Notes: a model not told the origin generated them from the sequence alone. Positions 12,968 through 48,043 are shown, numbered from the stretch's first letter. The stretch: 56,043 bases of DNA from Candidatus Omnitrophota bacterium (GCA_903959815.1 CAJBYM010000022.1:1-56043), one strand, 5' to 3'. Translations and numbers: made by a program.

Positions 12968-15766
12968 TCAATTCATGGCCGCTTCCTGCAAGAACGGCAA
13001 ACCTTCGAGCGACATGACAGAAATGATCTCGGGTGAAAATCCTTCTACGGCCTCAGGCGACATCTTCATGCCTTGCAAACCAAACTCTTGCCGTTGCCCC
13101 TTAAGGTCAAATGCACCATTAACATTCCGAACATCAATACCTCCTGTGATCTCAGACTTGTCGAATTCCCTCAAAACCTTAAGAACCAAACCCGTCGGCA
13201 ACTGATTCGCCGCTTGAACAATATCGCACATATAAATATAAGGTATCAAATATTTGTTCAAAGGTGAATTCTTGTCCCCGCCTTTATAATATTTGTGCTC
13301 CCAGTCATGCAAAAAAGCCTCGGTGGACTTAAACTGAACCTCTATGGTCCAAGCCCCATGGCCCAACATAAAAATAACATGCACGCCGTTATACCATTTA
13401 GGAGTTGATGTCTTTTTCTTTCTTTCCAAACTATAATAATTGATAACCCTGGCAACAATAGGCGCGTTGTTCTTAAAATTCTTTTTAATATCCTCGATTC
13501 GGGCCAAATCTCTTTGCAGTCGACCCTTTTCTTCCTGTTCTTCATCCGATAAACTTTCTCCAACAAGTCGTGCCAACTTCTTATTGATCTTTTGTTCAGC
13601 CGCTTGAAAATCACTCCAAAACTGCTTCAAAAATATGACCTGCTTCTTGGGATCAAGAAGGTCCTGCAATGACTTGAATAAATCCCTGGGATTATCATAA
13701 ATAAAACGCAGACCCAAGTAATCATAACCTTCCCTAGGATCAGGTGCCGGCTTTCCACTCCGCTGTGTATTAGAAAACTTCGCATTTAAACTCTCGGCAC
13801 CTTTGGGCCGACCCGCAATGATCTGCGGCTTTGTCCCCATAAGATCCTTCAAGCTTCTTGAAAAGTCATCGGATTTCTTTTGAAAAAGAACCTTGGATTC
13901 TTTGGCTATATTTATAGTCCATTGTTTCAACGAAACATTCGTAGGCACAATAAACTGCCCATCATTAGAGCGGCTATCGTTAATAATACCTGTATCATCC
14001 ATTTCATTGATCTGAGGAAATTTATTCAAATACTCAATTTCTTTCATTAACCGCAGAAAAAGCTCCTTATACTCTGCATCTGTCTTAAATTTCTTGACAA
14101 CAGAAGCCATTCTCGGGATCAACTCCGGATGAAGTTTTAGAATATACTCCCCCAGGATCTCTTGATAAGGAACGTCTTCATCTTTCGTACGCGACATCAT
14201 GGCCAAACCCCGCAAAATATCAAAGGTTTCCTGCGTGCGCGTACCACTCAGGATCTGTTTCTTTAATGCCGATTCTTCTTCGGGCTCATCCATAACATCA
14301 CCTGATGTTTCTGGACGCTTATCCAAAATATCTGCCAATGCTTTAACTAGGAGCTGCTTATGTTCTTCCCCATCCAAATAAAGGTCAAAAGCACCCTTAA
14401 CCTCCTTGACCATTCTTTCCTTATTGGCCTGAAGCAACGACCACTCACGGGATCCATAACTAAACTTTTTCTCCTCATCCTCAAAAATAATAAACGCAAG
14501 TTCCTTGATACTTTCCATCATCAATGCCATTCTTTCTTTACCTGGAAAATTATCACGTTTTATATCCGCAACAAACTCTGAAGGTGGTGCAAACTTATTC
14601 ACCTGCGGGTCAGGACCTCGCAAATCACCTTTTAGCTCAACATATTTCTTCTTCTTTCGCCCCTGCTTTTCTGAAGCATCCATAGAAGAACGCACCTTGA
14701 ACGTCTTCTCGGAGAAATCTTTGCCTATGCCGGTCGTAAACCCACCGGAAAGATATTTGCGCGGGATCGTCTCGCCGCTATAACGGTCAACTTCTTCTTT
14801 AATATAATTAAAAACCCCTTGGCGAAAGGCCTGAACATACTGATTGTAGATGCGCTGATTCTCAGCCACATCAGCCTGCTCTATACCTTTGACCTTACCC
14901 TGATCAACATAAGCCTTACCCAAAAAAGTCTCATGCATCGCCTTTTTATACCAAGTCGCAAGAATAAGCGCATTGTAAATCTGACGCAAGCGAGCGAAAT
15001 TCTTACCCTGATTCACTTCTTTCTCAAGAGCAGGAATGATGATCTGTCGCATCATGGACTTCGTTAATTCTTGCGTAGGGGCCGACCTTGTGTCGGCCCG
15101 TTCATGAGCTACAACATTATTGTCCATCGCGAGATAATCTGATTCCAGCATGACCTTCAGATGCGCTTTTAGGACCATGGCGCTCGTACCCTGCTGATAT
15201 ACCTCGGCAACATCAGGCATGATCCAGACTTTATTGAATGTATCCACCGGAATATCTGTAGTACCAAATTGATCCTGCGCCTGACGATAAACTTCTGCCC
15301 AGAAATCCTTACCAATCCCCTCTTCAGGATAAATGAGCGATGCCGTGATCTGTTTGAGCATATAATCCTGCGCCAAAAGATCACGCCCCATTTCCGTCAA
15401 GCCGAAACGATCATCAATGATGCGGTCTTTTTCATACGGAGAAAGGTTAACCCACAGCTGGTCTTCAGGAATCGTGAGAGAAACCATAAAATCTTTAACG
15501 AGCAGTAAATATTCATCTTTCCGGGCATCTCCTTGCGGCATCTGCCCCGGATCGACAAAAAACTGGAACTGCAAAGGATTTTCAGGATCAACGGTCAAGG
15601 CACTTAAGAGAGCTGGTTCAAAAGATGCGCTTAAAGCAACTTTATCTCCAGCAGGAGGCAGAAGAACAGCCTGGGCATGAACATACGCAGACGGAAAAGC
15701 TAATGCCAAAGCAAGGGCTCCGGCAATGAACCGCTTTAATATATTATTGTAAATACTGCAAATCAT
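12968..15766 (-). CDS. 932-aa signal-peptide protein: conserved N-terminal module, RelA/SpoT-type synthetase-like domain, conserved C-terminal module (paralogue of the 3,175-aa ORF)
   Basis: ATG at 15766. Signal peptide FIAGALALALAFPSAYVHA. Residues 32-345 align with the N-terminus of ORF 36406-45933. Residues ~645-830 carry GRPKGAESLNAK, DYLGLRFIY, WYNGVHVIF and IEVQFKSTEAFLHDWEHKYYKG in the RSH synthetase motif order. The last ~60 aa, GGIDVRNVNGAFDLKG...GFSPEIISVMSLEGLPFL, are shared with the giant ORF. Confidence 0.8.
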   Translation of the reverse strand: MICSIYNNILKRFIAGALALALAFPSAYVHAQAVLLPPAGDKVALSASFEPALLSALTVDPENPLQFQFFVDPGQMPQGDARKDEYLLLVKDFMVSLTIPEDQLWVNLSPYEKDRIIDDRFGLTEMGRDLLAQDYMLKQITASLIYPEEGIGKDFWAEVYRQAQDQFGTTDIPVDTFNKVWIMPDVAEVYQQGTSAMVLKAHLKVMLESDYLAMDNNVVAHERADTRSAPTQELTKSMMRQIIIPALEKEVNQGKNFARLRQIYNALILATWYKKAMHETFLGKAYVDQGKVKGIEQADVAENQRIYNQYVQAFRQGVFNYIKEEVDRYSGETIPRKYLSGGFTTGIGKDFSEKTFKVRSSMDASEKQGRKKKKYVELKGDLRGPDPQVNKFAPPSEFVADIKRDNFPGKERMALMMESIKELAFIIFEDEEKKFSYGSREWSLLQANKERMVKEVKGAFDLYLDGEEHKQLLVKALADILDKRPETSGDVMDEPEEESALKKQILSGTRTQETFDILRGLAMMSRTKDEDVPYQEILGEYILKLHPELIPRMASVVKKFKTDAEYKELFLRLMKEIEYLNKFPQINEMDDTGIINDSRSNDGQFIVPTNVSLKQWTINIAKESKVLFQKKSDDFSRSLKDLMGTKPQIIAGRPKGAESLNAKFSNTQRSGKPAPDPREGYDYLGLRFIYDNPRDLFKSLQDLLDPKKQVIFLKQFWSDFQAAEQKINKKLARLVGESLSDEEQEEKGRLQRDLARIEDIKKNFKNNAPIVARVINYYSLERKKKTSTPKWYNGVHVIFMLGHGAWTIEVQFKSTEAFLHDWEHKYYKGGDKNSPLNKYLIPYIYMCDIVQAANQLPTGLVLKVLREFDKSEITGGIDVRNVNGAFDLKGQRQEFGLQGMKMSPEAVEGFSPEIISVMSLEGLPFLQEAAMN

Positions 15767-35323: not shown

Positions 35324-36205
35324 TTACTCCTTTTCAACGGCCTTCTTAATGATCTTCTTCTTACCCGTTTCCTTAACGCCAACGGTTTCATCGAGTTCGA
35401 CCATACCTTCCGCAAGACTTTCCACAATAACCTGCGGAATAACACCCTCAACCACAGCAACCGGAATAGCCGCTGCTGCTTCAGCCGAAATTTCAGCAAC
35501 AGGCGTAGCCTGCTCTCCTGAAAATTCTTTCTTACCTTCAATGATGCTATCTGTCAAAAGACCGGCAATAAGACGAACGGATTTAACCGCGTCATCATTA
35601 GCAGGGATAGGACGATCAATAGGATCAGGATCAGAGTTCGTATCGATCATAGCGATGACCGGGATATTCAAGCGCTTGCATTCCTTGATCGCAATATCTT
35701 CCTTCTTCACGTCAACAACAAAAACAGCGTCAGGCAAACGGACCATATCGCGGATACCGCCCAGGTCGCTCATCAAACGCTCTCTTTCCTTATTAAGCAG
35801 CGCGATCTCTTTCTTGGTCAAACGAGCAAAAATGCCGTCCTTTTCCATGCGCTCGATCTCCTGGAGCTTACGGATCGATTTTTTGACCGTTTCAAAATTA
35901 GTCAAAAGACCGCCCATCCAGCGGGCATTCACAAAAAACATGCCGGAACGCGCAGCTTCCTGCTGAACCACTTCCTGGGCCTGCTTCTTGGTTCCCACAA
36001 AAAGAAAACGCCCGCCTTTCGCCGCAATGTTACGCGCGAAATCACGGGCCTCTGCCAGACACTCTGCTGTCTTCTCAAGGTCAATAACATAAATACCACT
36101 GCGTTCACCAAAGATATACTTCTTCATCTTCGGGTTCCAGCGGCGGGTTTGGTGGCCAAAATGCACACCAGCCTCTAGAAGCTGCTTGACTAACTCTAAA
36201 CTCAT
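35324..36205 (-). CDS. rpsB: 30S ribosomal protein S2 (with acidic/hydrophobic C-terminal extension)
   Basis: [57 protein letters not shown] at 36205 with an AGAGGAGAA SD. Confidence 0.9.
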
Positions 36206-36405: not shown

Positions 36406-39400
36406 CTACGGCAAGAGGAACAAACCGGGGTCCTCAAGCGGCTGGAAAGCTGTTATCCTGAAATCAAAACCCCGGAAAAGCTGAAGGAATTGCTGTGAAC
36501 TCTCGGGAGAGAAAATCTGAAGGCCAATATCGACAGGGGTAAGGATGCCCTTAAAATCAACGATGTCGGATACACCTGTAAGGTCAAGCCCGCCATTCTC
36601 CGGTAAGGCAGCGCTGTCAGGCTCTTCAGGCGCAGCAACCTCCTCGGATTTATCCAGCCCCGCCTGTTTCAGTTGCAAGCTGATATCCTCCATTTGATCC
36701 CGGAATTTGATATGCTCAACCTTGGCCGAACTATAGTTCGGCAGAATAGCGCCGGCTTCAATATCACCCCTGAAATCCTTTCTCGCTTCAAGAAAAAGAT
36801 CATAATACAACAAATACCGTTTGCGCGCCGCGTTCTGCTCATCGATCAGTTCCTTATGATCGAAACCGTTGTGCTCATAAACATCCGGCTGTGAGATCCT
36901 TTTCTCAAGATACGCCTTCAACAGCCGGTCCTCGGGCAATATCAAAGGATTGATGATATCATTAGTCATGTGCAAAAGCGGCAAACTGTTCCAAAGATCC
37001 GGATCCTGCTCAAGTTTATCAAGGACTTTCCCCAGGATGCTGACAGTCTTCGCGTTAAAGAACATGAGGCCGCTAAGCGCGGGGAACTGTTTCAATTTCT
37101 TACGCTTCAGATCAAAACGTGTATTCAGATAAATCAGCTCGTGATCGACGTACATCGGCTCACGGCCTTTGCGTTCAATATCAGAAACGATCATCTTCTC
37201 ATGGATCTCTGCAACGGCATTGGTCTGACCATCGGGGTCCATCTTCAGAAGACCAAGCGTCTCAAGCTCCTTTTCATTCACCCAGTCGGCCTGAACATTG
37301 ATATCCTTATCCGCCGTGAATTCTAGCATGGGACCGAAATACGCGTCGCGGCTGTAAACAGTGATCTGCCCGCCCTTCGAAAAAGGATCGTCCTTCTTCA
37401 GCTTGGCCGCCAAACGGTAACCGTTGATCAAAGCCCAGTCAAGGACCCTGTTGTCATGGAACTTATTCATACCATGAAAAACAAACATGGCCCGGACATC
37501 CTGCCACGGCTTACCGCGCAAGTGCGGATACCGGGCCAAAAAATCCGGGTCCTTCAGTTTTGTGCGCATGAACTGCAAGGCGCGCAGTTCGACATTGCCG
37601 CTCCCTTTTGCGCTCGGAGCAATTACCATCGGCACACTATCCCTGGTCATCACTCCCCTGCTGATATCCACATATTTATTAACCTCATCGACATAATCCA
37701 AATCTTCCGGGATAACGATGACCATGTCCACGCTGGGCGCCCCGCTGCCATTCACTTGTTCATTCAACGCAGCCTTGCCTTCGTCGACGGACCGCTTGAC
37801 CACTTTGTCCATCCCTTTGGCGCCATTGCCATTGGACGTCAAAGGATCACCATTCTTTTTATCAAAATTTTCATCAAGTTTATTATTGATAGCCTTCATA
37901 TCCTTGAGCCATTCCGGATGCGTGATGACATACTGCGCCCACCAGAACGACCCAAACTTGGCAATAGCCCCCAGAATAGTCATCACGATCAACCCATTGC
38001 CGAGCAAGGGCAGTCCGAGAAAACGGGCAAAGAATCCCAGCCCCAAAAATATCGGGGGGGCATAGAGGAAAAGACGGCCCCTCCACCTGCGCCACAGATC
38101 CGCCCGGGCCGCTGCAGCCGATGTCAGAGAATGCAGGGTCTCGGCTTCCGCTATCATATCCTCCAATATCTTTTTGCTCCTGCCCAGAAGATCTTCATCC
38201 TCGTTATAAATCCCCGGCATTAATTTGTTGCCCTTTATTCTGATCTCGGGGATGAGCTCATAGATCCTCTTGGTGGAAATGCCGATCTGATCGGTATATT
38301 TGATCCCATAACGCATAAAAGGATACACTTTGCTCTTTTCGATAAAATGATCATCCGACCCCTTATATCCCATCAGCTTGTCAACAGAGCCCCGGCTTTC
38401 AAAAAGTTCCAGGTAGTCTTCGAGGTACGTTTGCATGTCAAGCAAACGTGCCTTATCGTCAAAAAGCATTTCCGTCTGACGACTATCAAATCCTGAGTGG
38501 CTGTCCTGATAATGGTCAAGGGCATTGCGCAATTCGGTGATCGACAGATAAAGATGAAAGAACGTTTTCATGTACTTGCCGTTACGGATCTCGCCATCCT
38601 CCGACCCCCTGCCCATGAGCTCCGGCACGTAAGGCATGGAACGGATGACATGGTCATACTGGTTCAAGGCTTCATTAATGTCATGGATAACCCCTTGCGG
38701 ATCAACCCCCTCATCTTCGTTCCAGCTCTTAACAATATTTTGCACCTTGACCAGGCGCTTGCGCGCCGAATTATTGAAACCGTCCTCAGGAATGATCGTG
38801 AATGTCAGGCCAGCCGATGTGCCCAGAGCGCCGGGGATCAGGAACATTCTGGCAACCTTTTCTTTCCAGCTGGTTGTTTTGCGCTTGACGCGAATAACGT
38901 CCTTGCGCAAAGACACGACAAGGTCGTCAACCTTGCCATATTTTCTGAAAAATTTCTTCTGAACAAAGCCATGAGCAATGAAGGCCCCGGCCGCAAATAG
39001 CGCCCAAAAAGCGTACCAGATCGACGAAGGAGTGTTCGAGACATTCTGATCATTCTTCAAAATAGACTCTTCAAGGCTCTTCATTTTCTTTTCGATCTCT
39101 CTTTTCAGGGACTTCTGGGTCGAATTGACCGGATTGAAATCCTCGAAATGGGTGATGATCTTCATTGGATCGGTCTCACCGGCGATCTTGAGTCTCATAT
39201 CTTTAATGAGAGCCGTCTCTGCGGTCCCGAATTTGCTGTTGTTCCAGAAATCCAGTTGCGGGGTGTACTCGATGCGCGACTCGACCAAATCAAGGGCTAT
39301 GCCGATCGCCATGGCCTTGATCTGGGCCTTGACCATGTCCGCCCCGTTGGGACGGGGATCCGTGGCCGCATGCAATTCGCCGAAGGTAAAAGTCTTTAAA

Positions 39401-42400
39401 CGGATATTCAAAGGCCAATCCTGCCCGGTGCGTCCATACATCTTAATCATGCCCTCACGCAAGATACTCATGGACTCCGGATCAGGCATGGATTGAACAT
39501 CCGCCCGAAGCAGTGCTTCCCAAGTACGGCTTTCCACCAAAGACAACAGATCATTATCGCTGGAATGCACATACTCCCTCCAGGCCAGGATACGGCCGTC
39601 AGGTTTCTCCATCAGTTTATCCAATACCACACCTCTCTGGAATGTCGGAGAGGCAAGAATACGCGCCAGCTCAGAAAGCCCGGTCCCGTTAATATACTCT
39701 GTCTGGGCATCAGTTCCCAGGGCATCAAAATACGTCAGCATGTCCGTGCTCTCAAGGGACAGGTCCTTAAGCTCATACAACGGCGAGGCAGTCCCCTTAT
39801 TTTCAGGATCCCCGGAAGAGATCTCCCTGTCAGCCTCTTTCTCGGCCCCCCTGAGAAGATCCTTATCGACAAAGCCCTCCATGTCCCGGTTCTCGGGAGA
39901 AGCTGTGAAAAACCTCGTGTTCATGTCTTTAAAAATGTCGCGCATATGCGCGTCATAAATATCCCCTTCACTGACACCCAAACCGCCCAGATTTCTAAAT
40001 GCCCCTTTGTTAAAAAAGTCAGGAACGCTCTCCTCGAACTTACGCCGAATGAGCTCTTTTCTTATAATGGGCGCGAGCTTCGCCGCGGCAGGTTCTTTGG
40101 CGCCAAGAAGGTCATTGTGGATCCCGGCAAGCTGTCGCGTGGACCAGTAGTTACTTTGGAGAAACCGCTCTTTGCCGACCCAATCGTCAGGTGCGAAAGC
40201 AAGGAATGTCAGAAGCACGCGCCGGGCATCCTGGGGCGTCATCTTCATAAAATCAGCATCGCCGCCTTCCGAATAACTGGCTTCAGTCCAATGCCTGAGC
40301 ACGGTCGTATCCTGAATGAACAGATCATTCAAAGCCTGAAAACCCAGCCTGGCCAACGCCATATTGTTCTTGCTGATCGCTTGATCAATGGTATGAACAA
40401 AGAACCTGGGCTCGCTGCCATTCGTCTTGCTCATATTCATGAATAATCGCTGGACCACATCAGGGAACGGAGAATTCAGGACAGCTTTTTGTGCGACAAC
40501 CATGAATTTTCCGTCGTTCTGTCGCTCTTTCATGAAAAAATCCAAGGTCTGCGTGCGCGTGATAATATTAGGATCATGCATTAGGATATCGAGGAGCACA
40601 TCATATTCATCCTGTCCCTGATTTTGGCCACCCGCCATCATGGCCCACATGACCGCCGAACTAATTGTCTTGGGTGAAGAAGAATAATTCACATGGCCTG
40701 CGGACATACCGCTCACCTGCCCCGATGATACCGGTTGTGTCGACGATCCCTGCACGACTGCCGGCGCTGAATATGTCACAGAAAGGGCTGCCATACCGGT
40801 AATCGGAGGGGCAGCATGGAACCCAGTCCCGAAAGAAGAACTTGAAGAAGCTAGCGGCGAACTTCCGTACTTGAATGCAGATGCCGACGGCCCCCCGTAC
40901 CCGGGATTTACGGCATCTTGGACGGCCTCGACAACATCCTGCCCGATCGAAGAGCTTTGTACGGACGCCAATACGCGCGTCGTGCCGTAATCAAGAAGCT
41001 GCATCTGCGTCAACCGGGACTCCGCCTTGAAGTATTTAGCTTTAAGGTCATAAAGCGCCTGGGCGGTTCTTGCGATCTCCTCACGAGCGGCAACCTGTTC
41101 ATAAGGCGAGTAGAGGTCAGGCCGGGACGCCATGTTCTTCCAACTCTTGATGGCCTTAAGGTAGTCCTCATTCCCTTCCTTGATCTGCTGGCTCAAGCTA
41201 TTGATACTCGCCGCGACCTGCGTCAATTCTGATCCAACCTCGGCTCGGATGCGCTGCTGATCATTGACAAACTTGTTCATATTGATCGGCCCAATGTCCT
41301 TTAGCGCCTGATTTTTGGAATTATAAATGGGAATATTCACATTGACCGCACCGTTCGCTCCCGACTGGGAAGCGCTCGTCTTATAGGTGGAACCGGAATA
41401 CGGATCAACAGCCGTATTGCTGATATCCTGAGTTAAAAAAAGCCCATTCACATTGACCTCCGGAAGCGCGCCGAGCTTGTTAAGCTTGATTGTCATGGCC
41501 ATGCCCTCGATCATGGCCTTGGCCTCCTTAAGCTTGAAATTCGGGGTCTTATCACCCAACAAGGTTGAGCTCAAGGCATCCAGCTCGCTTTGCGACATGC
41601 CCGGAAAGTCCCCGTTCCAGGGGAACTCAGGCGAGAACTTCGTGCCAGATTCAAGCCCATGATAAAAATTCGCTTCAAACGTCCAGGCAACAAGGTCATC
41701 TTGCCATTTACTCAGATTGTTGCGCGAGGCCTTGATCTTCGCATGGAGCGCGTCTTTTTCAGCCGTAACAACATTCCCGACCTTTTCATTGGCTTCGACA
41801 ACCGCCAGAGCTTTATTAAGATCATTCAACAAGGCCTGAAGATGGTCAATATGCCACTGAGCATTGCCGACTTGGATATCCAGGTCTTGCGCGTGCTGAA
41901 TATTCCGGCTGACCAGATCTCCCATCACATATGTGAGCGCCTCGGTCTTCTTGACCTGAAGAGCCTTGAGCTTTTGCGGCTCCCCGGTGATGACCTTCAC
42001 AAGCTCTCCGACAAGAGTGGAAACGATCGGGGAAAGCGCCCCATAAATATTGCCCGTCGTTAGCCCACCCTGTATCCCGTTGAACACAAGTCCCAGCCCA
42101 CCGCTCACGCCCAGTTTGCCGTTATTGGAAACAATGCCGAATTTCAGATTAAAGCTCGAAGGGTTGGCAAACTTCTCCTTGGCGCGGCTTTCCTGGACCT
42201 CAAGCTCGGCCTTGCCGTTGATCAGAAAATTATTGGCCGTCCGCGTCGAAAGTTCTTTCATGCTGACTACCTGGCCTTTTGGCAATGAGAGCACGTCGAA
42301 GGAAACCGACACAGGCGCCGCGTTCTTCAAAGGAAGCAGGGGCATGCTGGTCGGCATGATCACTGCGTTGGCAAACTGTTGCTGTGTCGAGACCCTGATC

Positions 42401-45400
42401 TGCGCCGTGCCGCCACCCGAGCGCCCCCCATTCACCGCTGGCTCTGCTCCATAACTCACAGACCTCGCCGCGCTATTGAACATGGCCAACACAAGGTCCT
42501 TGTCCTCATCCGTGGGCACGATCACTTTGACCGGCAGGTTCGGCTGAAGGACATTGTTGATATCTTCCGCTAGGATCTCGACCGTCTGGACACCACTTAG
42601 CCTCATGGTCTGGCCCATGGGCATGGTGTTGACATTCTTGACCCTCGCCGGCACATACTCTCCCCAGGGAGTCATAAGAACGATAGGATCATTGAACTGA
42701 AGACTGATATTGTCAGGCAACTGGATCGTATTATTCATGTCGTAAAGACTGCCCAGCGGGACCTCACTGGGCTTGATGCGCAGCATCTCATCGGCAAATG
42801 CAAAAGAAGAAACGCTCATCGCTGAAATTGACGTCACGATGCCATTAGCAGGCGCCGTGACTCGCGTGCGGCGGACCTGTTTCCTGAGCGCTTTAAGTTT
42901 TGCCCCTAAAGCAGCAGCTTTTTCCTCAAGCTCATCCATCTGGTCATTAGAAAAATGCTGGACACCATCCCGAGGGGCAGACATCTCAAGCTGGGACTTG
43001 ACCGCTTCATAAGCCTTAAGCGTGCTTTTGTACTCTTCCGACGCGGAGCCTTCCACAATGACCATAAGCTGGCCTTTCTTTACCGTCTGGCCCAGCTTGA
43101 CAAAATACTGCGCAGTGCCATCCACCGGAGAAGGAACCAGGAGTTCTGCCGACGCAGGAACGCTTGAGATCGCCCAACCCTTCGCGTTGATGACAGGCGC
43201 ATTGGCCGAGAGCACCGGCGGCAGTATCTCAAGGTTCAAATGCGCATTCCTCGAATTTGAAATGGGCGCGGAGGGCTCGACAAGAAAGGTCACCCGCGCG
43301 AGATTATGCGTGGGATCAGGGTCTACGGCCACGTTAAGGATCCGCCTGACCTGCTGGCCGTCGATCTCAAACCTTCCGAAATATCCGAAAAACGCCTTAT
43401 TATAGGGCATCTCAACCGTCAGCCGCACCCTATCCTGGTCAATATATTCGAACATCTCCGTCCCCTTCTTGACAGGAGTGTTGTTGTAGATCCTCATATT
43501 CTTGATAAGCAAACGGGACGGCGCTCTGACCGTAAAAAGACGACGTTGATTGTCGAGCCGGGCTTTGACCTGGTTGCGCTGGGCCACCTGCCCCTCGACG
43601 GCACGAACTTTTACGGCTGGCATATTCCCGTTAGCGTTCAATTCCAGGGATCTATTCAATTTCGCGCCGCTGATCTTTAACAACTCATCATTCGTCTCGC
43701 TTTGCTCCAGGACATCATCTTCCTCAATGTTGAACATGACCGCGCCGCTCTGGTATCCATTTGCTCCCCGGTTCAGCCCCGAAACATAACCGGTCGTCTG
43801 GGCCACCATCGTCCTCTCATCGGGAACAAGCCCGACCTGTTTCGAGATGGTAAATGTTCCGGACGTTGACGAAAACGATGATGCCGTCGTTGAAGACTGC
43901 TTGACCATCACCGGGGCCGAAACCGGTGCAACAGTTTTTACCGGAGCAACATACGGGCTTGAAACAACCTTCTTCGGTGGCGGAAGAGGTGGCCGCGGAG
44001 GCCCCCCCGAACCTGATACCGCACTTTCAACAGTATTAGACGCCGCCATGGTTATCGTTACAGGCTTAGATTTTACGAAATCTTTGTTCACAACAGACAC
44101 CGGTCTTACAAGGGACGGCGATTTCACGCCCATCGATGTTTTAACTTCTTTCGCCTTGGATACTGACGAATTCTTCTCAACAGAAGGCACCTTGACCTTA
44201 ACATCTGATTTCGCCGCCGCAGACGTCGTCTTCACAACAGCCGTCCCGGTCATCAACGACCCCAATGCTCCGCGTGTCTGAGGCCCTATGTCCCCATCCT
44301 CAACAATCCCCATTTTATGCTGAGCAACAATAACGATCGCCTCCTGCATCCACCCCATCGTAGATGAAGAAAAGATCTTGTCCCAATTGCGCTCAATGGC
44401 ATCAGCATCAAAATCATAGGCTTGTCCCGTCAAAGGATTCTCTTTTCCCTGAATATCCCTGACATCATCGATGGTCAGAAAACCATTCATAAATGAAAAA
44501 TATTTTTGATCCTCTTCAAGGATAGGATCTCCTCGACTAATGATCTTCCGCGACACATCCTCAAGAGAGATCACATTCCGGGGACCTCCATTATTTTGCG
44601 CCACCTGCACCATATGGGTGGAATCAACAGGAACATGGAATGCCCCTTGCCCAGCGCCCTGAATCCCAAGACCTGACATGGAAGAAAGAAAAAGCCCTCC
44701 GGCAAAAGCCAACCCCAAAAGGCTTTTCCTGGACATCCCCCGGGGAACCAAAGAAACTGTAAAACGAAAAATATTCTTACCAAAACGATTCATTAAAGAA
44801 ACAAGCTCCGGCCTTGTCAAGGACCAGACAGGCATGATCTCGGTCCGCTCCGCCGCATCCTCGAAAGAAAATCCCCCTGAGAAATAATGGCGCGGAACGA
44901 CCTCCTGTTGATCCGTGTCATAATCCTCACGGATGATATCGTAAACCCCTTTTTTCAACGCCACCATATACTGGGCATAAATCTTTTGGGCGATCTCTTT
45001 GTCTTGTATTTGAATGCCAGATGTTTTCTTTTTATTGCTGTATATTTGATTAACAATGTGCTTCTGAAGCTTCTTCTTAAACCAGATCGCAAGGACCAAG
45101 GAATTGAACATTTGACGCAATTGTGAGAAATAATGACCCTCATTAACTTCCCGCTCAAGCTCAGGAATGATGATGTCGCGTGCGATCATCAGATATAACC
45201 CCGTAATCTCCTTTTCCGCATGTACAGAGACTTTATCCTCAGCAGCCGTCTTTTTAAGAGTCAAATAATCCTGATCAAGCAAAACCTTCAATCGGCTTTC
45301 AGCAATAAAAGCCATGCCCTTTTGCTCATAAACAACAGCTTTCTGTGGAACCACCCACACCTTGCTGAATGTGTCGAGCGGAAGATCAACCTCACCGTAT

Positions 45401-45933
45401 TTATTTCTGATCTTGGAACGCACCTGTTCCCAAAAAGATTTCCCCGGCTCCACATCGGGAAAGGTCATCGACGCCGCCATCTGTTTCAAGAGATAATCCT
45501 GCCTGAGCAGATCCTCACCGACAGCGGTGCCGCCCAAAACCGGATTAACAATACGATCCGGCTCGGAAGGAGAAAGATTGACCCAAAGATCTTTTTCCGG
45601 AATGGTCAAAAAAGCGAGAAAATATTTGATCAGGCGCTGTGACCCTTCTTCATTAAAGTTCGGATGTTCTCCCGCATCAACGAGAAAATCGATCTTCAGC
45701 GGATCAATCGGATCAATGGATATCGCTTTCAGAAGAGGGCATGCAGCCGTGGATGATGCAGACAATAAAACGCCAGGAGGAGGATCCATAATAATGCTTT
45801 GCGCATAAGCATCCTTAACACGCAAAAGATCAATCCCGATAGTGTTGCCGGTATAGATCACCAGTAGCGCACAACACACAAAACGGAAGGAGCGTGACCA
45901 TCCTGAATTTCTCTGCTGCATCAATGAATACAT
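36406..45933 (-). CDS. Giant (3,175-aa) signal-peptide multidomain envelope protein: shared N-module, PG-binding-like motif, two MFP(HlyD)-like units, TolC-like coiled coils, TM helices, unknown domains, shared C-module
   Basis: An uninterrupted 9.5-kb ORF with ATG at 45933 and signal peptide CCALLVIYTGNTIGIDLLRVKDAYA. Supporting motifs: GIVEDGDIGPQTRGALGSL; VKLGQTVKKGQLMVIVEGS ... coiled coil ... RVTAPANGIVTSI; and LGALPEVNVNGLF / NVNIPIYNSKNQ / YEQVAAREEIARTAQALYDLKAKYFKAESRL. Hydrophobic helices at aa 2305-2324 and 2620-2670. All long plus-strand ORFs inside it are low-complexity shadows. Confidence 0.85.
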   Translation of the reverse strand: MYSLMQQRNSGWSRSFRFVCCALLVIYTGNTIGIDLLRVKDAYAQSIIMDPPPGVLLSASSTAACPLLKAISIDPIDPLKIDFLVDAGEHPNFNEEGSQRLIKYFLAFLTIPEKDLWVNLSPSEPDRIVNPVLGGTAVGEDLLRQDYLLKQMAASMTFPDVEPGKSFWEQVRSKIRNKYGEVDLPLDTFSKVWVVPQKAVVYEQKGMAFIAESRLKVLLDQDYLTLKKTAAEDKVSVHAEKEITGLYLMIARDIIIPELEREVNEGHYFSQLRQMFNSLVLAIWFKKKLQKHIVNQIYSNKKKTSGIQIQDKEIAQKIYAQYMVALKKGVYDIIREDYDTDQQEVVPRHYFSGGFSFEDAAERTEIMPVWSLTRPELVSLMNRFGKNIFRFTVSLVPRGMSRKSLLGLAFAGGLFLSSMSGLGIQGAGQGAFHVPVDSTHMVQVAQNNGGPRNVISLEDVSRKIISRGDPILEEDQKYFSFMNGFLTIDDVRDIQGKENPLTGQAYDFDADAIERNWDKIFSSSTMGWMQEAIVIVAQHKMGIVEDGDIGPQTRGALGSLMTGTAVVKTTSAAAKSDVKVKVPSVEKNSSVSKAKEVKTSMGVKSPSLVRPVSVVNKDFVKSKPVTITMAASNTVESAVSGSGGPPRPPLPPPKKVVSSPYVAPVKTVAPVSAPVMVKQSSTTASSFSSTSGTFTISKQVGLVPDERTMVAQTTGYVSGLNRGANGYQSGAVMFNIEEDDVLEQSETNDELLKISGAKLNRSLELNANGNMPAVKVRAVEGQVAQRNQVKARLDNQRRLFTVRAPSRLLIKNMRIYNNTPVKKGTEMFEYIDQDRVRLTVEMPYNKAFFGYFGRFEIDGQQVRRILNVAVDPDPTHNLARVTFLVEPSAPISNSRNAHLNLEILPPVLSANAPVINAKGWAISSVPASAELLVPSPVDGTAQYFVKLGQTVKKGQLMVIVEGSASEEYKSTLKAYEAVKSQLEMSAPRDGVQHFSNDQMDELEEKAAALGAKLKALRKQVRRTRVTAPANGIVTSISAMSVSSFAFADEMLRIKPSEVPLGSLYDMNNTIQLPDNISLQFNDPIVLMTPWGEYVPARVKNVNTMPMGQTMRLSGVQTVEILAEDINNVLQPNLPVKVIVPTDEDKDLVLAMFNSAARSVSYGAEPAVNGGRSGGGTAQIRVSTQQQFANAVIMPTSMPLLPLKNAAPVSVSFDVLSLPKGQVVSMKELSTRTANNFLINGKAELEVQESRAKEKFANPSSFNLKFGIVSNNGKLGVSGGLGLVFNGIQGGLTTGNIYGALSPIVSTLVGELVKVITGEPQKLKALQVKKTEALTYVMGDLVSRNIQHAQDLDIQVGNAQWHIDHLQALLNDLNKALAVVEANEKVGNVVTAEKDALHAKIKASRNNLSKWQDDLVAWTFEANFYHGLESGTKFSPEFPWNGDFPGMSQSELDALSSTLLGDKTPNFKLKEAKAMIEGMAMTIKLNKLGALPEVNVNGLFLTQDISNTAVDPYSGSTYKTSASQSGANGAVNVNIPIYNSKNQALKDIGPINMNKFVNDQQRIRAEVGSELTQVAASINSLSQQIKEGNEDYLKAIKSWKNMASRPDLYSPYEQVAAREEIARTAQALYDLKAKYFKAESRLTQMQLLDYGTTRVLASVQSSSIGQDVVEAVQDAVNPGYGGPSASAFKYGSSPLASSSSSFGTGFHAAPPITGMAALSVTYSAPAVVQGSSTQPVSSGQVSGMSAGHVNYSSSPKTISSAVMWAMMAGGQNQGQDEYDVLLDILMHDPNIITRTQTLDFFMKERQNDGKFMVVAQKAVLNSPFPDVVQRLFMNMSKTNGSEPRFFVHTIDQAISKNNMALARLGFQALNDLFIQDTTVLRHWTEASYSEGGDADFMKMTPQDARRVLLTFLAFAPDDWVGKERFLQSNYWSTRQLAGIHNDLLGAKEPAAAKLAPIIRKELIRRKFEESVPDFFNKGAFRNLGGLGVSEGDIYDAHMRDIFKDMNTRFFTASPENRDMEGFVDKDLLRGAEKEADREISSGDPENKGTASPLYELKDLSLESTDMLTYFDALGTDAQTEYINGTGLSELARILASPTFQRGVVLDKLMEKPDGRILAWREYVHSSDNDLLSLVESRTWEALLRADVQSMPDPESMSILREGMIKMYGRTGQDWPLNIRLKTFTFGELHAATDPRPNGADMVKAQIKAMAIGIALDLVESRIEYTPQLDFWNNSKFGTAETALIKDMRLKIAGETDPMKIITHFEDFNPVNSTQKSLKREIEKKMKSLEESILKNDQNVSNTPSSIWYAFWALFAAGAFIAHGFVQKKFFRKYGKVDDLVVSLRKDVIRVKRKTTSWKEKVARMFLIPGALGTSAGLTFTIIPEDGFNNSARKRLVKVQNIVKSWNEDEGVDPQGVIHDINEALNQYDHVIRSMPYVPELMGRGSEDGEIRNGKYMKTFFHLYLSITELRNALDHYQDSHSGFDSRQTEMLFDDKARLLDMQTYLEDYLELFESRGSVDKLMGYKGSDDHFIEKSKVYPFMRYGIKYTDQIGISTKRIYELIPEIRIKGNKLMPGIYNEDEDLLGRSKKILEDMIAEAETLHSLTSAAAARADLWRRWRGRLFLYAPPIFLGLGFFARFLGLPLLGNGLIVMTILGAIAKFGSFWWAQYVITHPEWLKDMKAINNKLDENFDKKNGDPLTSNGNGAKGMDKVVKRSVDEGKAALNEQVNGSGAPSVDMVIVIPEDLDYVDEVNKYVDISRGVMTRDSVPMVIAPSAKGSGNVELRALQFMRTKLKDPDFLARYPHLRGKPWQDVRAMFVFHGMNKFHDNRVLDWALINGYRLAAKLKKDDPFSKGGQITVYSRDAYFGPMLEFTADKDINVQADWVNEKELETLGLLKMDPDGQTNAVAEIHEKMIVSDIERKGREPMYVDHELIYLNTRFDLKRKKLKQFPALSGLMFFNAKTVSILGKVLDKLEQDPDLWNSLPLLHMTNDIINPLILPEDRLLKAYLEKRISQPDVYEHNGFDHKELIDEQNAARKRYLLYYDLFLEARKDFRGDIEAGAILPNYSSAKVEHIKFRDQMEDISLQLKQAGLDKSEEVAAPEEPDSAALPENGGLDLTGVSDIVDFKGILTPVDIGLQIFSPESSQQFLQLFRGFDFRITAFQPLEDPGLFLLP

Positions 45934-46005
45934 GCCGTTCTCTCTTACATGGGGACTATAGGTTGAATATTCTTAGAAAAAGTATATACGCTAAATGTGG
46001 AATCC

Positions 46006-46064
46006 CCGTAACGCCGATGTAAACTCTGTGTTAACTACGTTAAAGAATGTTAAAATAATGTTGC
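46006..46064 (-). promoter_or_regulatory. Array of 5-6 direct hexamer repeats TT(A/T)AC(A/G) at ~10.5-bp phasing, merging into a putative -35 upstream of the giant ORF
   Basis: Minus-strand hexamers start at 46064 (GCAACA), 46053 (TTAACA), 46043 (TTAACG), 46034 (TTAACA), 46023 (TTTACA) and 46011 (TTACGG). A 17-nt spacer then leads to TATATA (45988-45983), about 50 nt upstream of the ATG at 45933. Confidence 0.35.
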
Positions 46065-46084
46065 GGATGATCGAAATAAGATAT

Positions 46085-46276
46085 TTAATTGTTTTCAAAC
46101 CTTGAAGGTGTTATTTCACCCTTCGTCAAGTCGACCCGAAAATATTTCATGTGACTCTGGCTTCTAAACCATGCCCGCCTGTTCTTCTGCAAACATGATC
46201 CAAAGGATTTTCCCATATCCCCTTCCCTGGACAAAATCTGTTCATTCAGAAAATACGGATCCCGAAAATAACTCAT
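46085..46276 (-). CDS. Small hypothetical protein (63 aa)
   Basis: ATG at 46276 is preceded by a strong AGGAGGTG SD at optimal spacing. No motif recognised. Confidence 0.45.
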   Translation of the reverse strand: MSYFRDPYFLNEQILSREGDMGKSFGSCLQKNRRAWFRSQSHMKYFRVDLTKGEITPSRFENN

Positions 46277-46402
46277 AGGCCACCTCCTATTTCAAATCTT
46301 TGTCTTTTAACAAAACAACTATACTTATGAAATATGACAATGCCATGACGCCACTGTCAACTTCCTGTGAAATAAGACATCTCTTGGGTTTGTTAAAGGA
46401 TA

Positions 46403-46966
46403 TTACGGTAAACGGGGATCAAAACGGGGCAAGGGCTCGATCAAGACACCGCCGGCGCTCTTTTCCGGATTCTTTTCTTTGATTCTTCTGATGTCATTTT
46501 TGATGGCATCAATCTCATCCAGGATCTTGGGAAGACCCTGGTCAACGATCTCTGATGTCGAATTTAACGACACCTCAAGCGCATCAACTTTTTGCTGAAT
46601 CGACACCAACGTGCTCACATAATCTTTCTGCCACTCTTTGGTATCATCCTTGATCTTCCAAGCCTCTGCCCTGCTCTGGGAAATGACGGACTTTATCTCA
46701 ACGATAGAATCCTTAATCTGCGGGATCAACTCGCCGATCTGGGCATTTTCTTTCTGAACTTTCTCAAACTTAACACGTTGTTCCTCGAGGCCGTTTTTCA
46801 AATCCTTGATCCCCACCTTCAACTCTTGTATATTTTTCTGTTGATCAGCCGTATACGTCCCCATCCATTCAAGAGACCTTTGTTGCTGGGCATAACAATA
46901 AAAAGAAAAGACGGTCATAGCAATAACCATGACCACCCCGATAATATTCAACAACCGTCTGAACAT
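46403..46966 (-). CDS. Membrane-anchored coiled-coil protein (about 187 aa), last gene of the pst-phoU operon
   Basis: The ATG at 46966 overlaps the phoU TGA. N-terminal TM IIGVVMVIAMTVFSFYCYA followed by heptad-like K/E/Q-rich sequence. Confidence 0.6.
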   Translation of the reverse strand: MFRRLLNIIGVVMVIAMTVFSFYCYAQQQRSLEWMGTYTADQQKNIQELKVGIKDLKNGLEEQRVKFEKVQKENAQIGELIPQIKDSIVEIKSVISQSRAEAWKIKDDTKEWQKDYVSTLVSIQQKVDALEVSLNSTSEIVDQGLPKILDEIDAIKNDIRRIKEKNPEKSAGGVLIEPLPRFDPRLP

Positions 46967-47631: not shown

Positions 47632-47644
47632 AGCACACTCCCTT

Positions 47645-48043
47645 TTATCTCGACAATCTAACCCAGTCAATGAGCCGCTCAACCTCATCACGAATATCTT
47701 CTCTAACTTCACGAAAGAAATCAAGGCTCTTTCCTTTCGGATCCCTGATCTGCCAATCTTCACGATCTTCCGCTGGAATGAACGGACACTTATCTCCACA
47801 GCCCATGGTCACAACCCAATCAAACTCATGCGATGACAGTTCATTAAACCCTTTTGAGACATGGCCTGAAATGTCGATCTCAACCTCTCGCATCACCTTG
47901 ACCGCATCTGAATTCAGCTTACCCGACGCGCTTGATCCTGCACTAAACACCTCGACCACCCCTTCACCCAACACACGCGCGAAACCTTCTGCCATTTGAC
48001 TGCGACAGGAATTTTCTACGCAGACGAACAATACTTTTTTCAT
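47645..48043 (-). CDS. arsC: Low-molecular-weight phosphatase-fold arsenate reductase (thioredoxin-coupled ArsC type) or LMW-PTP
   Basis: P-loop VLFVCVENSCRSQMAEG (C-x5-R-S) plus the downstream Cys pair GCGDKCP. ATG at 48043 just after the pstB stop. Confidence 0.65.
   Translation of the reverse strand: MKKVLFVCVENSCRSQMAEGFARVLGEGVVEVFSAGSSASGKLNSDAVKVMREVEIDISGHVSKGFNELSSHEFDWVVTMGCGDKCPFIPAEDREDWQIRDPKGKSLDFFREVREDIRDEVERLIDWVRLSR

Follow-up and report, generated by a model that had tools for sequence, protein, structure and literature searches.

A conserved Omnitrophota family of ~3,000-residue envelope proteins combines adaptor, TolC-like and inner-membrane modules and may form a single-chain trans-envelope duct

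As judged from sequence, the uncultured phylum Omnitrophota has a conserved family of envelope proteins, each of about 3,000 amino acids. The member described here is encoded in a 56,043 nucleotide stretch of DNA from Candidatus Omnitrophota bacterium, referred to below as the window. Read from the N-terminus, the predicted order of parts is a Sec signal, an N-module, a peptidoglycan (PG)-binding domain, a linker, two membrane fusion protein (MFP) units, a TolC-type unit, a second linker, a helical domain, a transmembrane (TM) and cytoplasmic part, and a C-module. Our leading interpretation, to which we assign a probability of roughly 45%, is that the protein is a self-contained trans-envelope duct. 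A trimer would then have the canonical ratio of three TolC units to six adaptors. We infer the topology, the trimerisation, and the duct function. Note that Omnitrophota are uncultured, ultra-small, and probably host-dependent organisms, with enigmatic giant proteins.

Results

The earlier note on this DNA proposed one intact 9.5 kb open reading frame. Consistent with this, the frame runs from ATG to stop with 0 internal stops; for sequence of ~49% GC, the chance of 3175 stop-free codons is near (61/64)^3175, or about e^-152. Approximately 30 colinear full-length orthologs (for example P0002-P0004, P0009, and P0024) were found in independent Omnitrophota assemblies from ENA, JGI, NCBI, and Logan. 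Colinearity over the full length persists down to 22-27% identity. Furthermore, an identical protein occurs on another contig and the synteny of the locus is matched in one other genome. The sole hint of a chimeric assembly, or of ordinary genes fused by sequencing errors, is a GC content of 0.52-0.54 at 40-44 kb, slightly above the flanks. Since the ~30 colinear orthologs are from independent assemblies, we regard such an artefact as ruled out. The intact frame and its colinear orthologs also favour the duct reading. A search for related loci with profile A8 returned six close Omnitrophota loci.

The gene is single and located among housekeeping operons (Table 1). As previously claimed, it is flanked by pst-phoU and rpsB, and no terminator-like site was found between the giant ORF and rpsB. 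The proposed core chromosome context applies in the source genome. Conversely, in other lineages, the five ortholog neighbourhoods place the gene within different operons. In none of these five is an ortholog flanked by an ABC, RND, or MFS transporter gene, or by an adaptor gene. Hence, the giant gene stands alone, as expected if the duct is self-contained. One neighbourhood (L004) has an unrelated OEP and RND pair 6 kb from the ortholog; canonical separate OEP and RND genes thus also occur in Omnitrophota. Two candidate partner genes were rejected. The first, a 188-aa upstream ORF (46403-46969), has its only conserved counterpart in the closest syntenic relative (42% identity) and is unrelated to small ORFs beside a distant ortholog. 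The second, pst-phoU, is linked to the family gene in 3 of 6 contexts and unlinked in the other three.

Table 1. Predicted features of the giant ORF and selected genes in the window
Feature	Position	Strand	Basis or remark
Giant ORF, 3175 aa, ATG start, stop codon included	36406..45933	minus	single ORF by ORF finder
Predicted Sec-type signal peptide, aa 1-45	45799..45933	minus	basic n-region, h-region FVCCALLVIY, AYA/Q; read from sequence
N-module, aa 46-398, mixed alpha/beta, specific to Omnitrophota large proteins	44740..45798	minus	39% identity to ORF 12968-15766
Internal signal-peptide-like segment, aa 399-432	44638..44739	minus	GMSRK, Gly/Ala/Leu-rich h-region, AGQGA
Conserved domain ending in PG_binding_1-like helix pair …MGIVEDGDIGPQTRGALGSL, aa 455-565	44239..44571	minus	profile A7 vs PDB
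S/V/K/P/T-rich low-complexity linker containing GGPPRPPLPPPKK, aa 566-699	43837..44238	minus	S 19%, V 18%, K 12%, P 11%
Adaptor unit 1 (hairpin, lipoyl half, start of beta-barrel), aa 700-915	43189..43836	minus	profile A9 positions 12-154
Adaptor unit 2 (lipoyl, alpha-hairpin, lipoyl, beta-barrel), aa 916-1160	42454..43188	minus	profile A9 positions 218-373
TolC/OEP-like outer-membrane-factor unit, aa 1216-1679, long helices and two putative beta-hairpins	40897..42288	minus	Pfam OEP, hhalign
Ser/Gly/Ala-rich linker, aa 1680-1759	40657..40896	minus	S 27%, G 12%, A 12%
Conserved alpha-helical domain, probably periplasmic, aa 1760-2300	39034..40656	minus	33/34 family members scored, and paralog P0037
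TM helix aa 2303-2326, then KKFFRKYGK; putative stop-transfer, outside to inside	38956..39027	minus	sequence; AF2 helix 19-48 of model me38f2d97e495
All-alpha domain, probably cytoplasmic, aa 2327-2605	38119..38955	minus	AF2 pLDDT mostly 75-92
TM helical hairpin, RRWRGR before it, aa 2606-2671	37921..38118	minus	AF2 helices 322-354 and 358-387 of model me38f2d97e495
Nucleotidyltransferase (GT-A) fold domain, aa 2737-3091	36661..37725	minus	AF2 pLDDT about 80-90
C-module, aa 3095-3175, GGLDLTG … FRGFDFRITAFQPLEDPGLFLLP	36409..36651	minus	C-module HMM E 1e-11
Paralog, 932 aa: signal peptide, N-module, unannotated cargo, C-module	12968..15766	minus	N-module HMM E 3e-155
PhoU	46966-47799		upstream of giant ORF
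PstB	48048-48809		upstream of giant ORF
rpsB, then tsf, pyrH, frr	35324-36205 (rpsB)	same as giant ORF	downstream of giant ORF

The two terminal modules of the giant protein had been described as shared; a second ORF in the window, the 932-aa paralog, carries both. For the N-module, tblastn aligned aa 43-364 with this ORF at 39% identity, and the N-module HMM matches the giant protein with an E value of 4e-152. The C-module HMM also matches the paralog, weakly (E 4e-4, 15.7 bits), and the paralog has no Pfam match. On sequence grounds, the two modules enclose the members of a family of ~8,300 clusters and are not a local duplication. The N-module is found in 8,301 clusters of the representative library, N-terminal without exception. 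Among complete N-module proteins, 208 of 213 have a Sec-type signal pattern, and the module begins at median residue 37. The C-module, of roughly 60 aa, almost always accompanies the N-module. In 90 of 126 N-module representatives it lies at the very end of the chain, and this group includes most representatives exceeding 1000 aa. We define the N/C-module (‘bookend’) superfamily by a Sec-type signal, an N-module near residue 37, and a C-module within ~70 residues of the C-terminus. The giant protein is a member (N-module E 4e-152, C-module E 1e-11). Many members carry enzyme domains, including those of glycolytic enzymes, kinases, methyltransferases, and SNF2 helicases. The N-module has no Pfam, NCBIfam, or PDB sequence match. 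Its AF2 model is mixed alpha/beta, of moderate confidence (pLDDT 64.8), and Foldseek detected no PDB fold match for it; with a pLDDT of just 64.8, a claim of a novel fold is not secure. The AF2 pLDDT of the C-module is below 50; no NCBIfam match was found, nor any Pfam match there in the whole-protein scan.

An improbable explanation is that the giant protein serves this superfamily, as the envelope component of a phylum-specific system exporting, anchoring, or assembling N/C-module proteins. The modules would be handles, joining all members into one assembly, in a manner like type I secretion or LapA-type adhesin retention; this, too, we consider improbable. The invariable N-terminal location of the N-module after a Sec-type signal, in 8,301 clusters, and the frequent C-terminal location of the C-module fit such a role. 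In addition, apart from their motor, type I secretion systems are built from MFP and TolC (PMC8277102), and both kinds of unit are present here. Among the Omnitrophota lineages sampled, the TolC-adaptor family is conserved, and each lineage contains the N-module superfamily as well. However, a cytoplasmic C-module is predicted for the giant protein, whereas in paralogs with signal peptides and no TM helices this module would be exported. This is inconsistent, unless topology differs. There is also no ABC exporter and, to our knowledge, type I substrates are without Sec signals. Finally, an N-module model with no fold match gives no mechanistic handle. More broadly, the bookends could mark a phylum-wide and previously undescribed system, of at least 8,300 clusters, by which multi-enzyme proteins of very large size would be exported, anchored at the surface, or concatenated, with the TolC-adaptor fusion as its portal. 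We consider that scenario similarly doubtful. If true, cytoplasmic-type enzymes would genuinely exit the cytoplasm, with a host or prey cell as one conceivable destination.

A hydrophobic segment had been noted at aa 404-424. The segment is present, but is really part of a longer conserved element, at aa 399-432, that resembles a signal peptide. In most orthologs aligned at this position, the sequence G[MIV]S[RK][KQR]xLL is followed by an h-region and then AxA. The hydrophobicity is borderline (KD 1.59 in the giant protein and 0.7-2.0 in orthologs). We rejected a twin-arginine (Tat) signal, because most orthologs have KK, RK, or RQ, not RR. A hidden TM helix inside the N-module, which would reconcile both signal-like segments, was also rejected, since no stretch is hydrophobic enough. 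For the duct reading, the element is a difficulty, because it makes the membrane side of the N-module ambiguous. It could instead point to a polyprotein, made as one chain and cut after the N-module, at the signal-peptide-like site, and in the low-complexity linkers. The N-module, adaptor, TolC-like, and inner-membrane parts would then act as individual proteins in an ordinary multi-subunit system. Besides the conserved n-h-c segment with its terminal AxA, two long Ser/Pro/Val-rich linkers, themselves unconserved, are positioned exactly between the functional blocks. There is also a precedent, since self-cleavage by their own peptidase domains has been proposed for Omnitrophota giant proteins (bioRxiv 10.1101/2023.11.21.568195). 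Yet Pfam and NCBIfam scans detected no peptidase domain in the giant protein. Moreover, the fusion order is strictly kept among orthologs at 22-45% identity, and no split genes were seen in that range. We consider both cleavage and a set of separate products improbable.

The next conserved domain is consistent with the PG-binding-like motif suggested previously. Profile A7 matches the PG-binding domain of an L,D-transpeptidase in the PDB (4lpq) with an E value of 1e-6. The assignment to PG_binding_1, a profile-detectable helical bundle with a DG-x-x-G-x-x-T motif, applies at the family level: PF01471 matches 12 of 14 family members scanned (best 1.4e-4), while the giant protein alone is sub-threshold (E 0.07, 13.8 bits, cutoff 23). 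Of the 34 members scored, only about 14 have a recognisable copy of this domain. The two low-complexity linkers are at the locations previously claimed and their compositions agree. The first, at aa 566-699, is unconserved among orthologs.

Two MFP/HlyD-like units had also been proposed, and profile A9 matches adaptors in the PDB over two stretches. In the first unit, these are EmrA, MexJ, ZneB, and 4l8j, and Pfam HlyD_3 matches aa 801-888. In the second, they are 4l8j (3e-13, the best E value), MacA (E 1e-11), MexA, and HlyD, with HlyD_D23 at aa 944-1054. Further E values for profile A9 were 9e-8 for MexA, 1e-6 for EmrA, and 7e-5 for HlyD. The HlyD_3, HlyD_D23, and Biotin_lipoyl models each match 11 of 13 orthologs. 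Hence, both units have the adaptor architecture, in which a lipoyl domain is interrupted by an alpha-hairpin and followed by a beta-barrel. Adaptors are otherwise encoded beside an ABC, RND, or MFS transporter; here, none is in the chain and none flanks the gene in the five neighbourhoods.

Outer membrane factors (OMFs) have two tandem repeats, each with two beta-strands and long helices, and a trimer forms a 12-strand barrel and an alpha-tunnel. The earlier suggestion of a TolC-like region is supported by Pfam OEP (PF02321), which matches aa 1465-1602 with 23.1-27.4 bits (cutoff 22) and is found in 9 of 12 orthologs (best E 2e-15). Using hhalign, profile A2 aligned with a profile built from 18 OMFs over 238 columns (E 5e-6), with a probability of 85.8%, not above 95%. 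The alignment extends from the helices of the first repeat through the second beta-hairpin and helix. Against the single E. coli TolC sequence, the hhalign probability was only 2%; in the alignment to this protein, LPEVNVNG and VNVNIPIYN are opposite TolC strand segments. Searching the PDB with an HMM of the TolC region gave nothing relevant. The first putative hairpin (FNLKFGIVS-NNGK-LGVSGGLGLVF) is assigned by pattern only, and the second is EVNVNGLFLTQ…AVNVNIPIYNS. We conclude that the unit is homologous to the OEP repeat. An OMF is normally a stand-alone protein of ~420-500 aa with its own signal peptide; this unit is instead embedded in a chain of 3175 residues.

Some family members differ in these parts. 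Of the TolC-like unit, P0005-7 and P0015 have only the helices, both beta-hairpin regions being absent. The TolC unit is absent from P0017, and both adaptors and TolC unit from P0013. Similarly, P0026, P0027, P0031, and P0032 have no GT-A-like domain. The variants without beta-hairpins, or without the adaptor-TolC cassette, retain the N-module, helical domain, TM region, and C-module. Hence, an outer-membrane channel is not the invariant core of the family, and these losses count against the duct reading. They better fit a scaffold than an obligatory channel. Accordingly, the protein might be a structural staple, a non-transporting tether or strut that links outer membrane, peptidoglycan, and inner membrane, and sets their spacing in very small cells. 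A single chain uniting a PG-binding domain with membrane anchors at both ends would suit this role, as would a single gene, among housekeeping operons, with no transporter or motor domain fused or adjacent. Even so, we think a staple unlikely. The lipoyl and alpha-hairpin architecture is kept in two copies, with HlyD_3 and HlyD_D23 in 11 of 13 members scanned, and a 2:1 ratio of adaptor to TolC is needed by a sealed duct, not by a tether. Furthermore, the PG-binding domain is detected in less than half of the members, and it is hard to see what a passive tether would do with conserved cytoplasmic domains.

The helical region without a recognised family, listed in the earlier note, is a conserved domain (33 of 34 members) with no PDB or Pfam match. 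For the part that follows, we infer three TM helices, a cytoplasmic helical domain, and a nucleotidyltransferase-fold domain. The TM helices resemble those proposed earlier: AF2 and hydrophobicity give one helix at aa 2303-2326, with equivalent hydrophobic segments in several orthologs, and a hairpin at aa 2606-2671. For the all-alpha domain between them, no match was among the 50 Foldseek matches listed. The alpha/beta-looking domain near the C-terminus was recovered, with a Rossmann-like GT-A fold by AF2 and Foldseek. The latter matched it to ADP-glucose pyrophosphorylase (1yp2, E 7e-4, probability 1.0), and to UDP-glucose pyrophosphorylase; sequence identity to pyrophosphorylases is 10-14% and the TM-score at most 0.29. 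In alignment A6, the GSGN and SRDAYF motifs are kept and the G-x-G-x-R loop is absent, with the consensus VDM[IV]VIVPE in its place. A match to CofC is weak (E 0.004, below cutoff), and neither a Pfam NTP_transferase match nor a PDB sequence match was found. Sugar nucleotidyltransferases have the G-x-G-x-R/K loop and are recognised at the sequence level. Because the loop is replaced, and there is no family-level sequence match, we do not assign the domain to that class. With the G-x-G-x-R loop missing, catalysis is in doubt.

Discussion

The earlier note described an apparently envelope-spanning single chain. The PG-binding, MFP, OEP, and TM modules were all found; spanning itself is predicted, because of the usual locations of these domain families and the positive-inside rule. 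Note that PG-binding, MFP, and OEP domains are normally extracytoplasmic. In the duct reading, Sec would thread the chain as far as the stop-transfer helix at aa 2303-2326. Three chains would associate, with their TolC-like units forming a 12-strand barrel in the outer membrane together with an alpha-helical tunnel. Each chain would contribute two of the six adaptor units of a hexameric sleeve, in the 3:6 ratio of AcrAB-TolC and MacAB-TolC, and the PG-binding domain would fasten everything to the cell wall. At the inner membrane, the duct would be closed by the helical domain, nine TM helices, and the cytoplasmic domains, which would stand in for a separate transporter of the ABC, RND, or MFS type. 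The outcome would be a duct or portal across the whole envelope.

Several observations favour such a duct. Adaptor, TolC, and PG-binding homologies were all detected by profile. Topology is suggested by KKFFRKYGK after the first TM helix, by RRWRGR before the hairpin, and by the nucleotide-utilising fold of the last domain. Low-complexity linkers lie either side of the adaptor-TolC block, as the chain would require in order to extend to the outer membrane and back. Two adaptors and one TolC unit per chain would give, as a trimer, the canonical 6:3 ratio known from tripartite pump structures (reviewed in PMC8277102). On the other side, no motor was identified, since Pfam and NCBIfam detected no ABC nucleotide-binding, RND, or MFS domain in the chain, and there are just three TM helices. 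The TolC statistics are weak, with no PDB match by HMM and a profile-profile probability of 86%, and the nucleotidyltransferase-like domain is without its G-x-G-x-R loop.

A natural single-chain version of these machines, with the 2:1 ratio of adaptor to channel built in, would be a ready-made object for the study of duct assembly. It would also show that a trans-envelope conduit is possible without a classical motor. In addition, the family connects recognisable envelope parts with the large N/C-module superfamily. This link makes the possible extracytoplasmic fate of enzyme-laden, signal-peptide-bearing proteins, and the route that they would take, a matter of specific localisation and interaction tests.

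In textbooks, tripartite pumps and type I secretion systems are machines built from three proteins. Like AcrAB-TolC, MacAB-TolC, and HlyBD-TolC, the giant protein has adaptor and TolC/OEP homologs, and its 2:1 ratio per chain reproduces their 6:3 stoichiometry. Both membranes are spanned by machines of the AcrAB-TolC type, and the same is predicted here. However, the former are three proteins and the latter is one 3175-aa polypeptide. Where AcrAB-TolC-type machines have a transporter, the giant protein has three helices, helical domains without known relatives, and a GT-A-fold domain; it adds the PG-binding domain, N-module, and C-module. Since the defining part of a tripartite pump or type I system, an energised inner-membrane transporter, is absent, the protein may work like these systems and yet be no member as defined.

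Outer-membrane tethers of other phyla include OmpM, SlpA, OmpA, Pal, and Lpp. The first four, of the type with a coiled coil and a wall-binding domain, combine an outer-membrane anchor and a PG-binding module in each chain, as the giant protein is predicted to do. Here, however, the anchor is TolC-type and the PG-binding domain PG_binding_1-type, and there are adaptors and inner-membrane anchoring. Sugar-nucleotide pyrophosphorylases share their fold with aa 2737-3091, and GSGN-A and SRDAYF resemble their GTADAV and SGDHLY. In contrast, this domain has VDM[IV]VIVPE for the nucleotide loop, is membrane-tethered, and is missing in some orthologs. The N-module family follows the same logic as TpsA proteins of two-partner secretion, with a Sec signal, a conserved N-terminal domain (about 350 aa, compared to about 250 aa in TpsA), and a variable region of very large size. 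Unlike the beta-helix of TpsA, the N-module has a predicted mixed alpha/beta structure, and the family adds a C-terminal module. No Pfam match, and hence none to Haemagg_act, the beta-helical TPS domain that an adjacent TpsB recognises, was found for the N-module. A canonical TpsA/TpsB pair is present separately in the window, at 3-5584, where TpsB is paired with its own TpsA.

Known Omnitrophota giant proteins, of ‘Archaeovorin’ and dockerin types, are over 10-147 kaa long (bioRxiv 10.1101/2023.11.21.568195; 10.64898/2026.06.07.730766; PMC10066038). They resemble the protein described here in belonging to the same phylum, in large size, and in having a signal peptide, TM helices, and long unannotated stretches. 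The giant ORF product is 10-50x smaller and is part of a conserved orthologous family, whereas those proteins are mostly sequence-unique. A conserved 3-kaa family would be a far easier entry to Omnitrophota than proteins of >10 kaa.

The giant gene and its surroundings

The ORF finder bore out the by-eye reading of the giant gene as a single frame, and its translation contains no internal stops (coordinates of all features are in the table). The earlier note had raised the possibility of misassembly. However, a second contig carries the identical protein, and ~30 clusters, drawn from ENA, JGI, NCBI and Logan assemblies, align with it colinearly over the full length (2.5-3.5 kaa, 22-45% identity). 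Hence, misassembly does not account for the ORF, and we regard that explanation as scarcely credible. Source-named matches are all Candidatus Omnitrophota or Omnitrophica, one paralog being from Candidatus Aceula. The GTDB genome collection yielded six related loci, five of them in Omnitrophota MAGs and one on a 3.8-kb contig that had been binned as Planctomycetales. GC content is 0.52-0.54 within the gene (40001-44000) versus 0.44-0.50 in the flanks, the elevated stretch being that of the adaptor, TolC-like and linker regions.

Features of the giant protein and other genes in the window
Feature	Residues (aa)	Position (nt)	Strand	Details
TpsA-like ORF	at least 1285	3-3857	-	haemagglutinin-type N-terminus (…LPEGGVVVEGDG…NYNSFNIG…); cut by window edge
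TpsB, ShlB/FhaC-type		3866-5584	-	POTRA_2 and ShlB
T2SSE ATPase		within 7246-21003
Prepilin peptidase		within 7246-21003
Paralog p932	932	12968-15766	-	bookend protein
DprA		within 7246-21003
OmpA-LysM protein		within 7246-21003
Class II fructose-bisphosphate aldolase		within 7246-21003
rpsB		35324-36205	-	followed by tsf, pyrH, frr
Giant ORF	3175	36406-45933	-	ATG start
Sec-type signal peptide	1-45			basic n-region, h-region, AYA followed by Q
N-module	46-398
Internal signal-peptide-like segment	399-432	44638-44739	-	G[MIV]S[RK][KQR]xLL, Gly/Ala/Leu-rich h-region, often AxA
Conserved domain	455-565			last 45 residues PG_binding_1-like
S/V/K/P-rich linker	566-699
Two periplasmic adaptor (MFP) units	700-1160
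TolC/OEP-like unit	1216-1679
Ser-rich linker	1680-1759
Conserved alpha-helical domain	1760-2300			no database match
TM helix	2303-2326			then KKFFRKYGK; AlphaFold2 model
All-alpha domain	between TM helix and hairpin			AlphaFold2 model
TM hairpin	2606-2671			RRWRGR ahead; AlphaFold2 model
Alpha/beta domain	2737-3091			AlphaFold2 model
C-module	C-terminal end			low confidence in AlphaFold2 model
~44-aa ORF	~44	within 45934-46402		…RRAWFRSQSH…
188-aa ORF	188	46403-46969	-	N-terminal TM helix, coiled-coil-like sequence; overlaps phoU end
PhoU		46966-47799
PstB		48048-48809

The flanks are those described from the sequence, with PhoU and PstB upstream, and rpsB, tsf, pyrH and frr downstream on the same strand. 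Promoter-like sites precede both the giant ORF and rpsB and, as had been claimed, no terminator-like site was found between the two. Synteny is shared with P0003 (locus L002; 42% identity), the closest ortholog that is well assembled, in which pstSCAB-phoU is followed by a small ORF, the giant gene and rpsB-tsf-pyrH-frr. The small upstream ORF is kept only in this syntenic relative, where an ORF in the same place is 42% identical to the 188-aa ORF. Similarly, the ~44-aa ORF, in the 470-bp gap ahead of the giant gene, weakly resembles a 66-aa ORF that L002 carries in its corresponding gap.

Elsewhere, the gene lies upstream of a phoB-like regulator, porin and pstSCAB-phoU (P0024, L003), between kdpFABC and kdpDE (P0029, L004), between thrS and infC-rpmI-rplT (P0020, L006), or in an unrelated neighbourhood (P0009). 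In L002, L003, L004 and L006, it is inserted in otherwise conserved operons. The pst-phoU cluster adjoins it in three of six contexts, in differing orientations. None of the five ortholog neighbourhoods has an ABC, RND or MFS transporter gene, or an adaptor gene, beside the ortholog. L004 does have an OEP gene, separate from the ortholog and ~6 kb downstream of it, with an RND gene as neighbour.

Other window genes include a canonical two-partner secretion pair, formed by the TpsA-like and TpsB ORFs, and an OmpA-LysM protein. The T2SSE ATPase, prepilin peptidase and DprA genes are of type IV pilus/competence type. Together with the OmpA-LysM and aldolase genes, they account for the ORFs at 7246-8628, 11893-12900, 15863-17032, 18000-19010 and 19801-21003.

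Wall-binding, adaptor and TolC-like units

The peptidoglycan-binding-like motif suspected by eye was recovered by profile search against the PDB, where an L,D-transpeptidase was matched in its PG-binding domain (E 1e-6). Among 14 members, 12 are matched by PF01471, which is sub-threshold for the window protein by itself. The proposed pair of MFP/HlyD-like units also held up; profile search of the PDB gave matches in two separate stretches (4l8j, 3e-13; MacA, 1e-11), with MexA, EmrA and HlyD matched too. HlyD_3 and HlyD_D23 are each found in 11 of 13 orthologs. Likewise, for the segment called TolC-like, Pfam OEP scores above cutoff in the window protein and matches 9 of 12 orthologs (best 2e-15). 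Aligned by hhalign to a profile of 18 canonical OMFs, the unit gave a probability of 85.8% (E 5e-6, 238 columns). Two strand-turn-strand segments, read from the sequence, are at the places of the TolC hairpins, each followed by ~130-140 residues of predicted helix.

The membrane region and topology

No match to the helical domain was found in Pfam or PDB profile searches. The AlphaFold2 model of residues 2285-3175 has a pLDDT of 76.5 and pTM of 0.76. For its alpha/beta domain, Foldseek returned ADP-glucose/UDP-glucose pyrophosphorylases (E 7e-4, probability 1.0, TM-score at most 0.29), and a weak CofC match agrees with this placement. The GSGN-A and SRDAYF motifs resemble GTADAV and SGDHLY of these enzymes. 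However, the pyrophosphorylase G-x-G-x-R loop is replaced by VDMIVIVPE in both alignments of this part of the protein (A4 and A6). Hence, the catalytic competence of this GT-A-like domain appears doubtful.

PG-binding, MFP and OEP domains function outside the cytoplasmic membrane, and nucleotide-utilizing GT-A domains inside. Based on this, and on the basic clusters after the TM helix and before the hairpin, we assign residues ~432-2300 to the periplasm and outer membrane. Residues 2327-3175, except the short hairpin loop, are placed in the cytoplasm.

The side of the N-module is less clear. The N-terminal segment resembles a cleavable Sec signal, and on that basis the module would lie outside. 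In 208 of 213 complete N-module relatives, one or more Lys/Arg residues precede a strong h-region; the module of these relatives starts at median residue 37. Conversely, the internal signal-like segment directly after the module, with basic residues on its N-side, would fit the module staying inside, as would the cytoplasmic-type cargo of paralogs with no TM segment. These signals point opposite ways. The internal segment is kept at the same position in most orthologs and has borderline hydrophobicity (KD 0.7-2.0). If the protein were a polyprotein, it would be cut at this site and in the linkers; we consider this very improbable. A Tat signal was ruled out because its n-region mostly carries KK, RK or RQ. 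So was a hidden TM helix within the N-module, every segment being too weakly hydrophobic.

The bookend superfamily

The N- and C-modules had been described as shared. The giant ORF and p932 are the window's only two bookend members, and the modules belong to a much larger superfamily. The N-module profile matches 8,301 representatives of 50% identity clusters at E ≤ 1e-3 (6,742 at E ≤ 1e-30), and the match starts within the first 72 residues in every one of the best 150. The module has no match in Pfam, NCBIfam or PDB sequences, and its mixed alpha/beta AF2 model (pLDDT 64.8) none in Foldseek. The C-module (~60 aa; consensus GGIDLNPAxLDLQIKRDGNGVPLP…IxGFxPVIINIxPVxNLPLLLG) has no NCBIfam match, and no Pfam match in a whole-protein scan. 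Of 126 N-module representatives, 90 have it no more than ~70 residues from the C-terminus, among them most of the representatives longer than 1000 aa; short representatives without it may be fragments. The first half of the C-module HMM (…LDLQIKRDGNGVPLP…) also gives partial matches at internal positions in several members, including p932 (residues 411-434) and the L004 and L005 orthologs.

Cargo between the modules is extremely variable. Precomputed Pfam lists include glycolytic enzymes, methyltransferases, Ser/Thr kinases, response regulators, SNF2 helicases, NUDIX and HAD; some cargo carries nothing annotated. Of 88 paralogs checked, about half show no hydrophobic segment beyond the N-module. 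Hence, cytoplasmic-type enzymes lie behind apparently canonical Sec signal peptides. Not all central-metabolism enzymes of this genome are fused to bookends, since the window's fructose-bisphosphate aldolase stands alone. The giant protein could be a dock or conduit for this superfamily, which we think quite improbable. A similar long shot is a phylum-wide system of export or assembly, marked by the bookends and with the giant protein as its portal.

Family variants and a possible mechanism

We searched 34 family members with sub-domain HMMs. N-module, helical domain, TM region with cytoplasmic helical bundle, and C-module form a near-invariant core; the sole exception, P0016, is a partial record ending within the helical domain. 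Four members (P0005-P0007 and P0015) keep the TolC-like helices and are missing both beta-hairpin regions. P0017 has no TolC unit, and P0013 neither adaptors nor TolC unit. The GT-A-like domain is missing from P0026, P0027, P0031 and P0032, and the PG-binding domain is detectable in ~14 members.

Given these homologies, the domain order and its conservation, the most economical mechanism would be a single-chain trans-envelope assembly, acting in the manner of a tripartite pump or a type I secretion duct. The chain would be exported through Sec as far as the stop-transfer helix, and the TolC-like units would then trimerise. Two adaptor units per chain could provide the canonical hexameric sleeve (3:6), and wall attachment would come from the PG-binding domain. 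The place usually taken by the transporter would be filled by the helical domain, nine TM helices and cytoplasmic domains, and we infer a duct for whatever substrate there may be. We put the probability of this reading at roughly 0.45, and no higher because no motor is present and some lineages lack the outer-membrane part. The same domains could instead make a purely structural tether between outer membrane, wall and inner membrane, which we judge unlikely.

Comparison with known systems

The giant protein falls in none of the described Omnitrophota giant-protein classes. Searches of papers on such proteins (PMC10066038; bioRxiv 10.1101/2023.11.21.568195; bioRxiv 10.64898/2026.06.07.730766) gave no mention of TolC or HlyD. 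Similarly, a limited full-text search of the literature, including a large 2021 review, returned no natural adaptor-TolC fusion. The giant protein is homologous to both MFP and OMF components. However, these are stand-alone subunits with an energized transporter partner, and the giant protein is not a stand-alone subunit and has no such partner. Hence, we describe it as working like MFP/OMF systems, rather than as a member of them.
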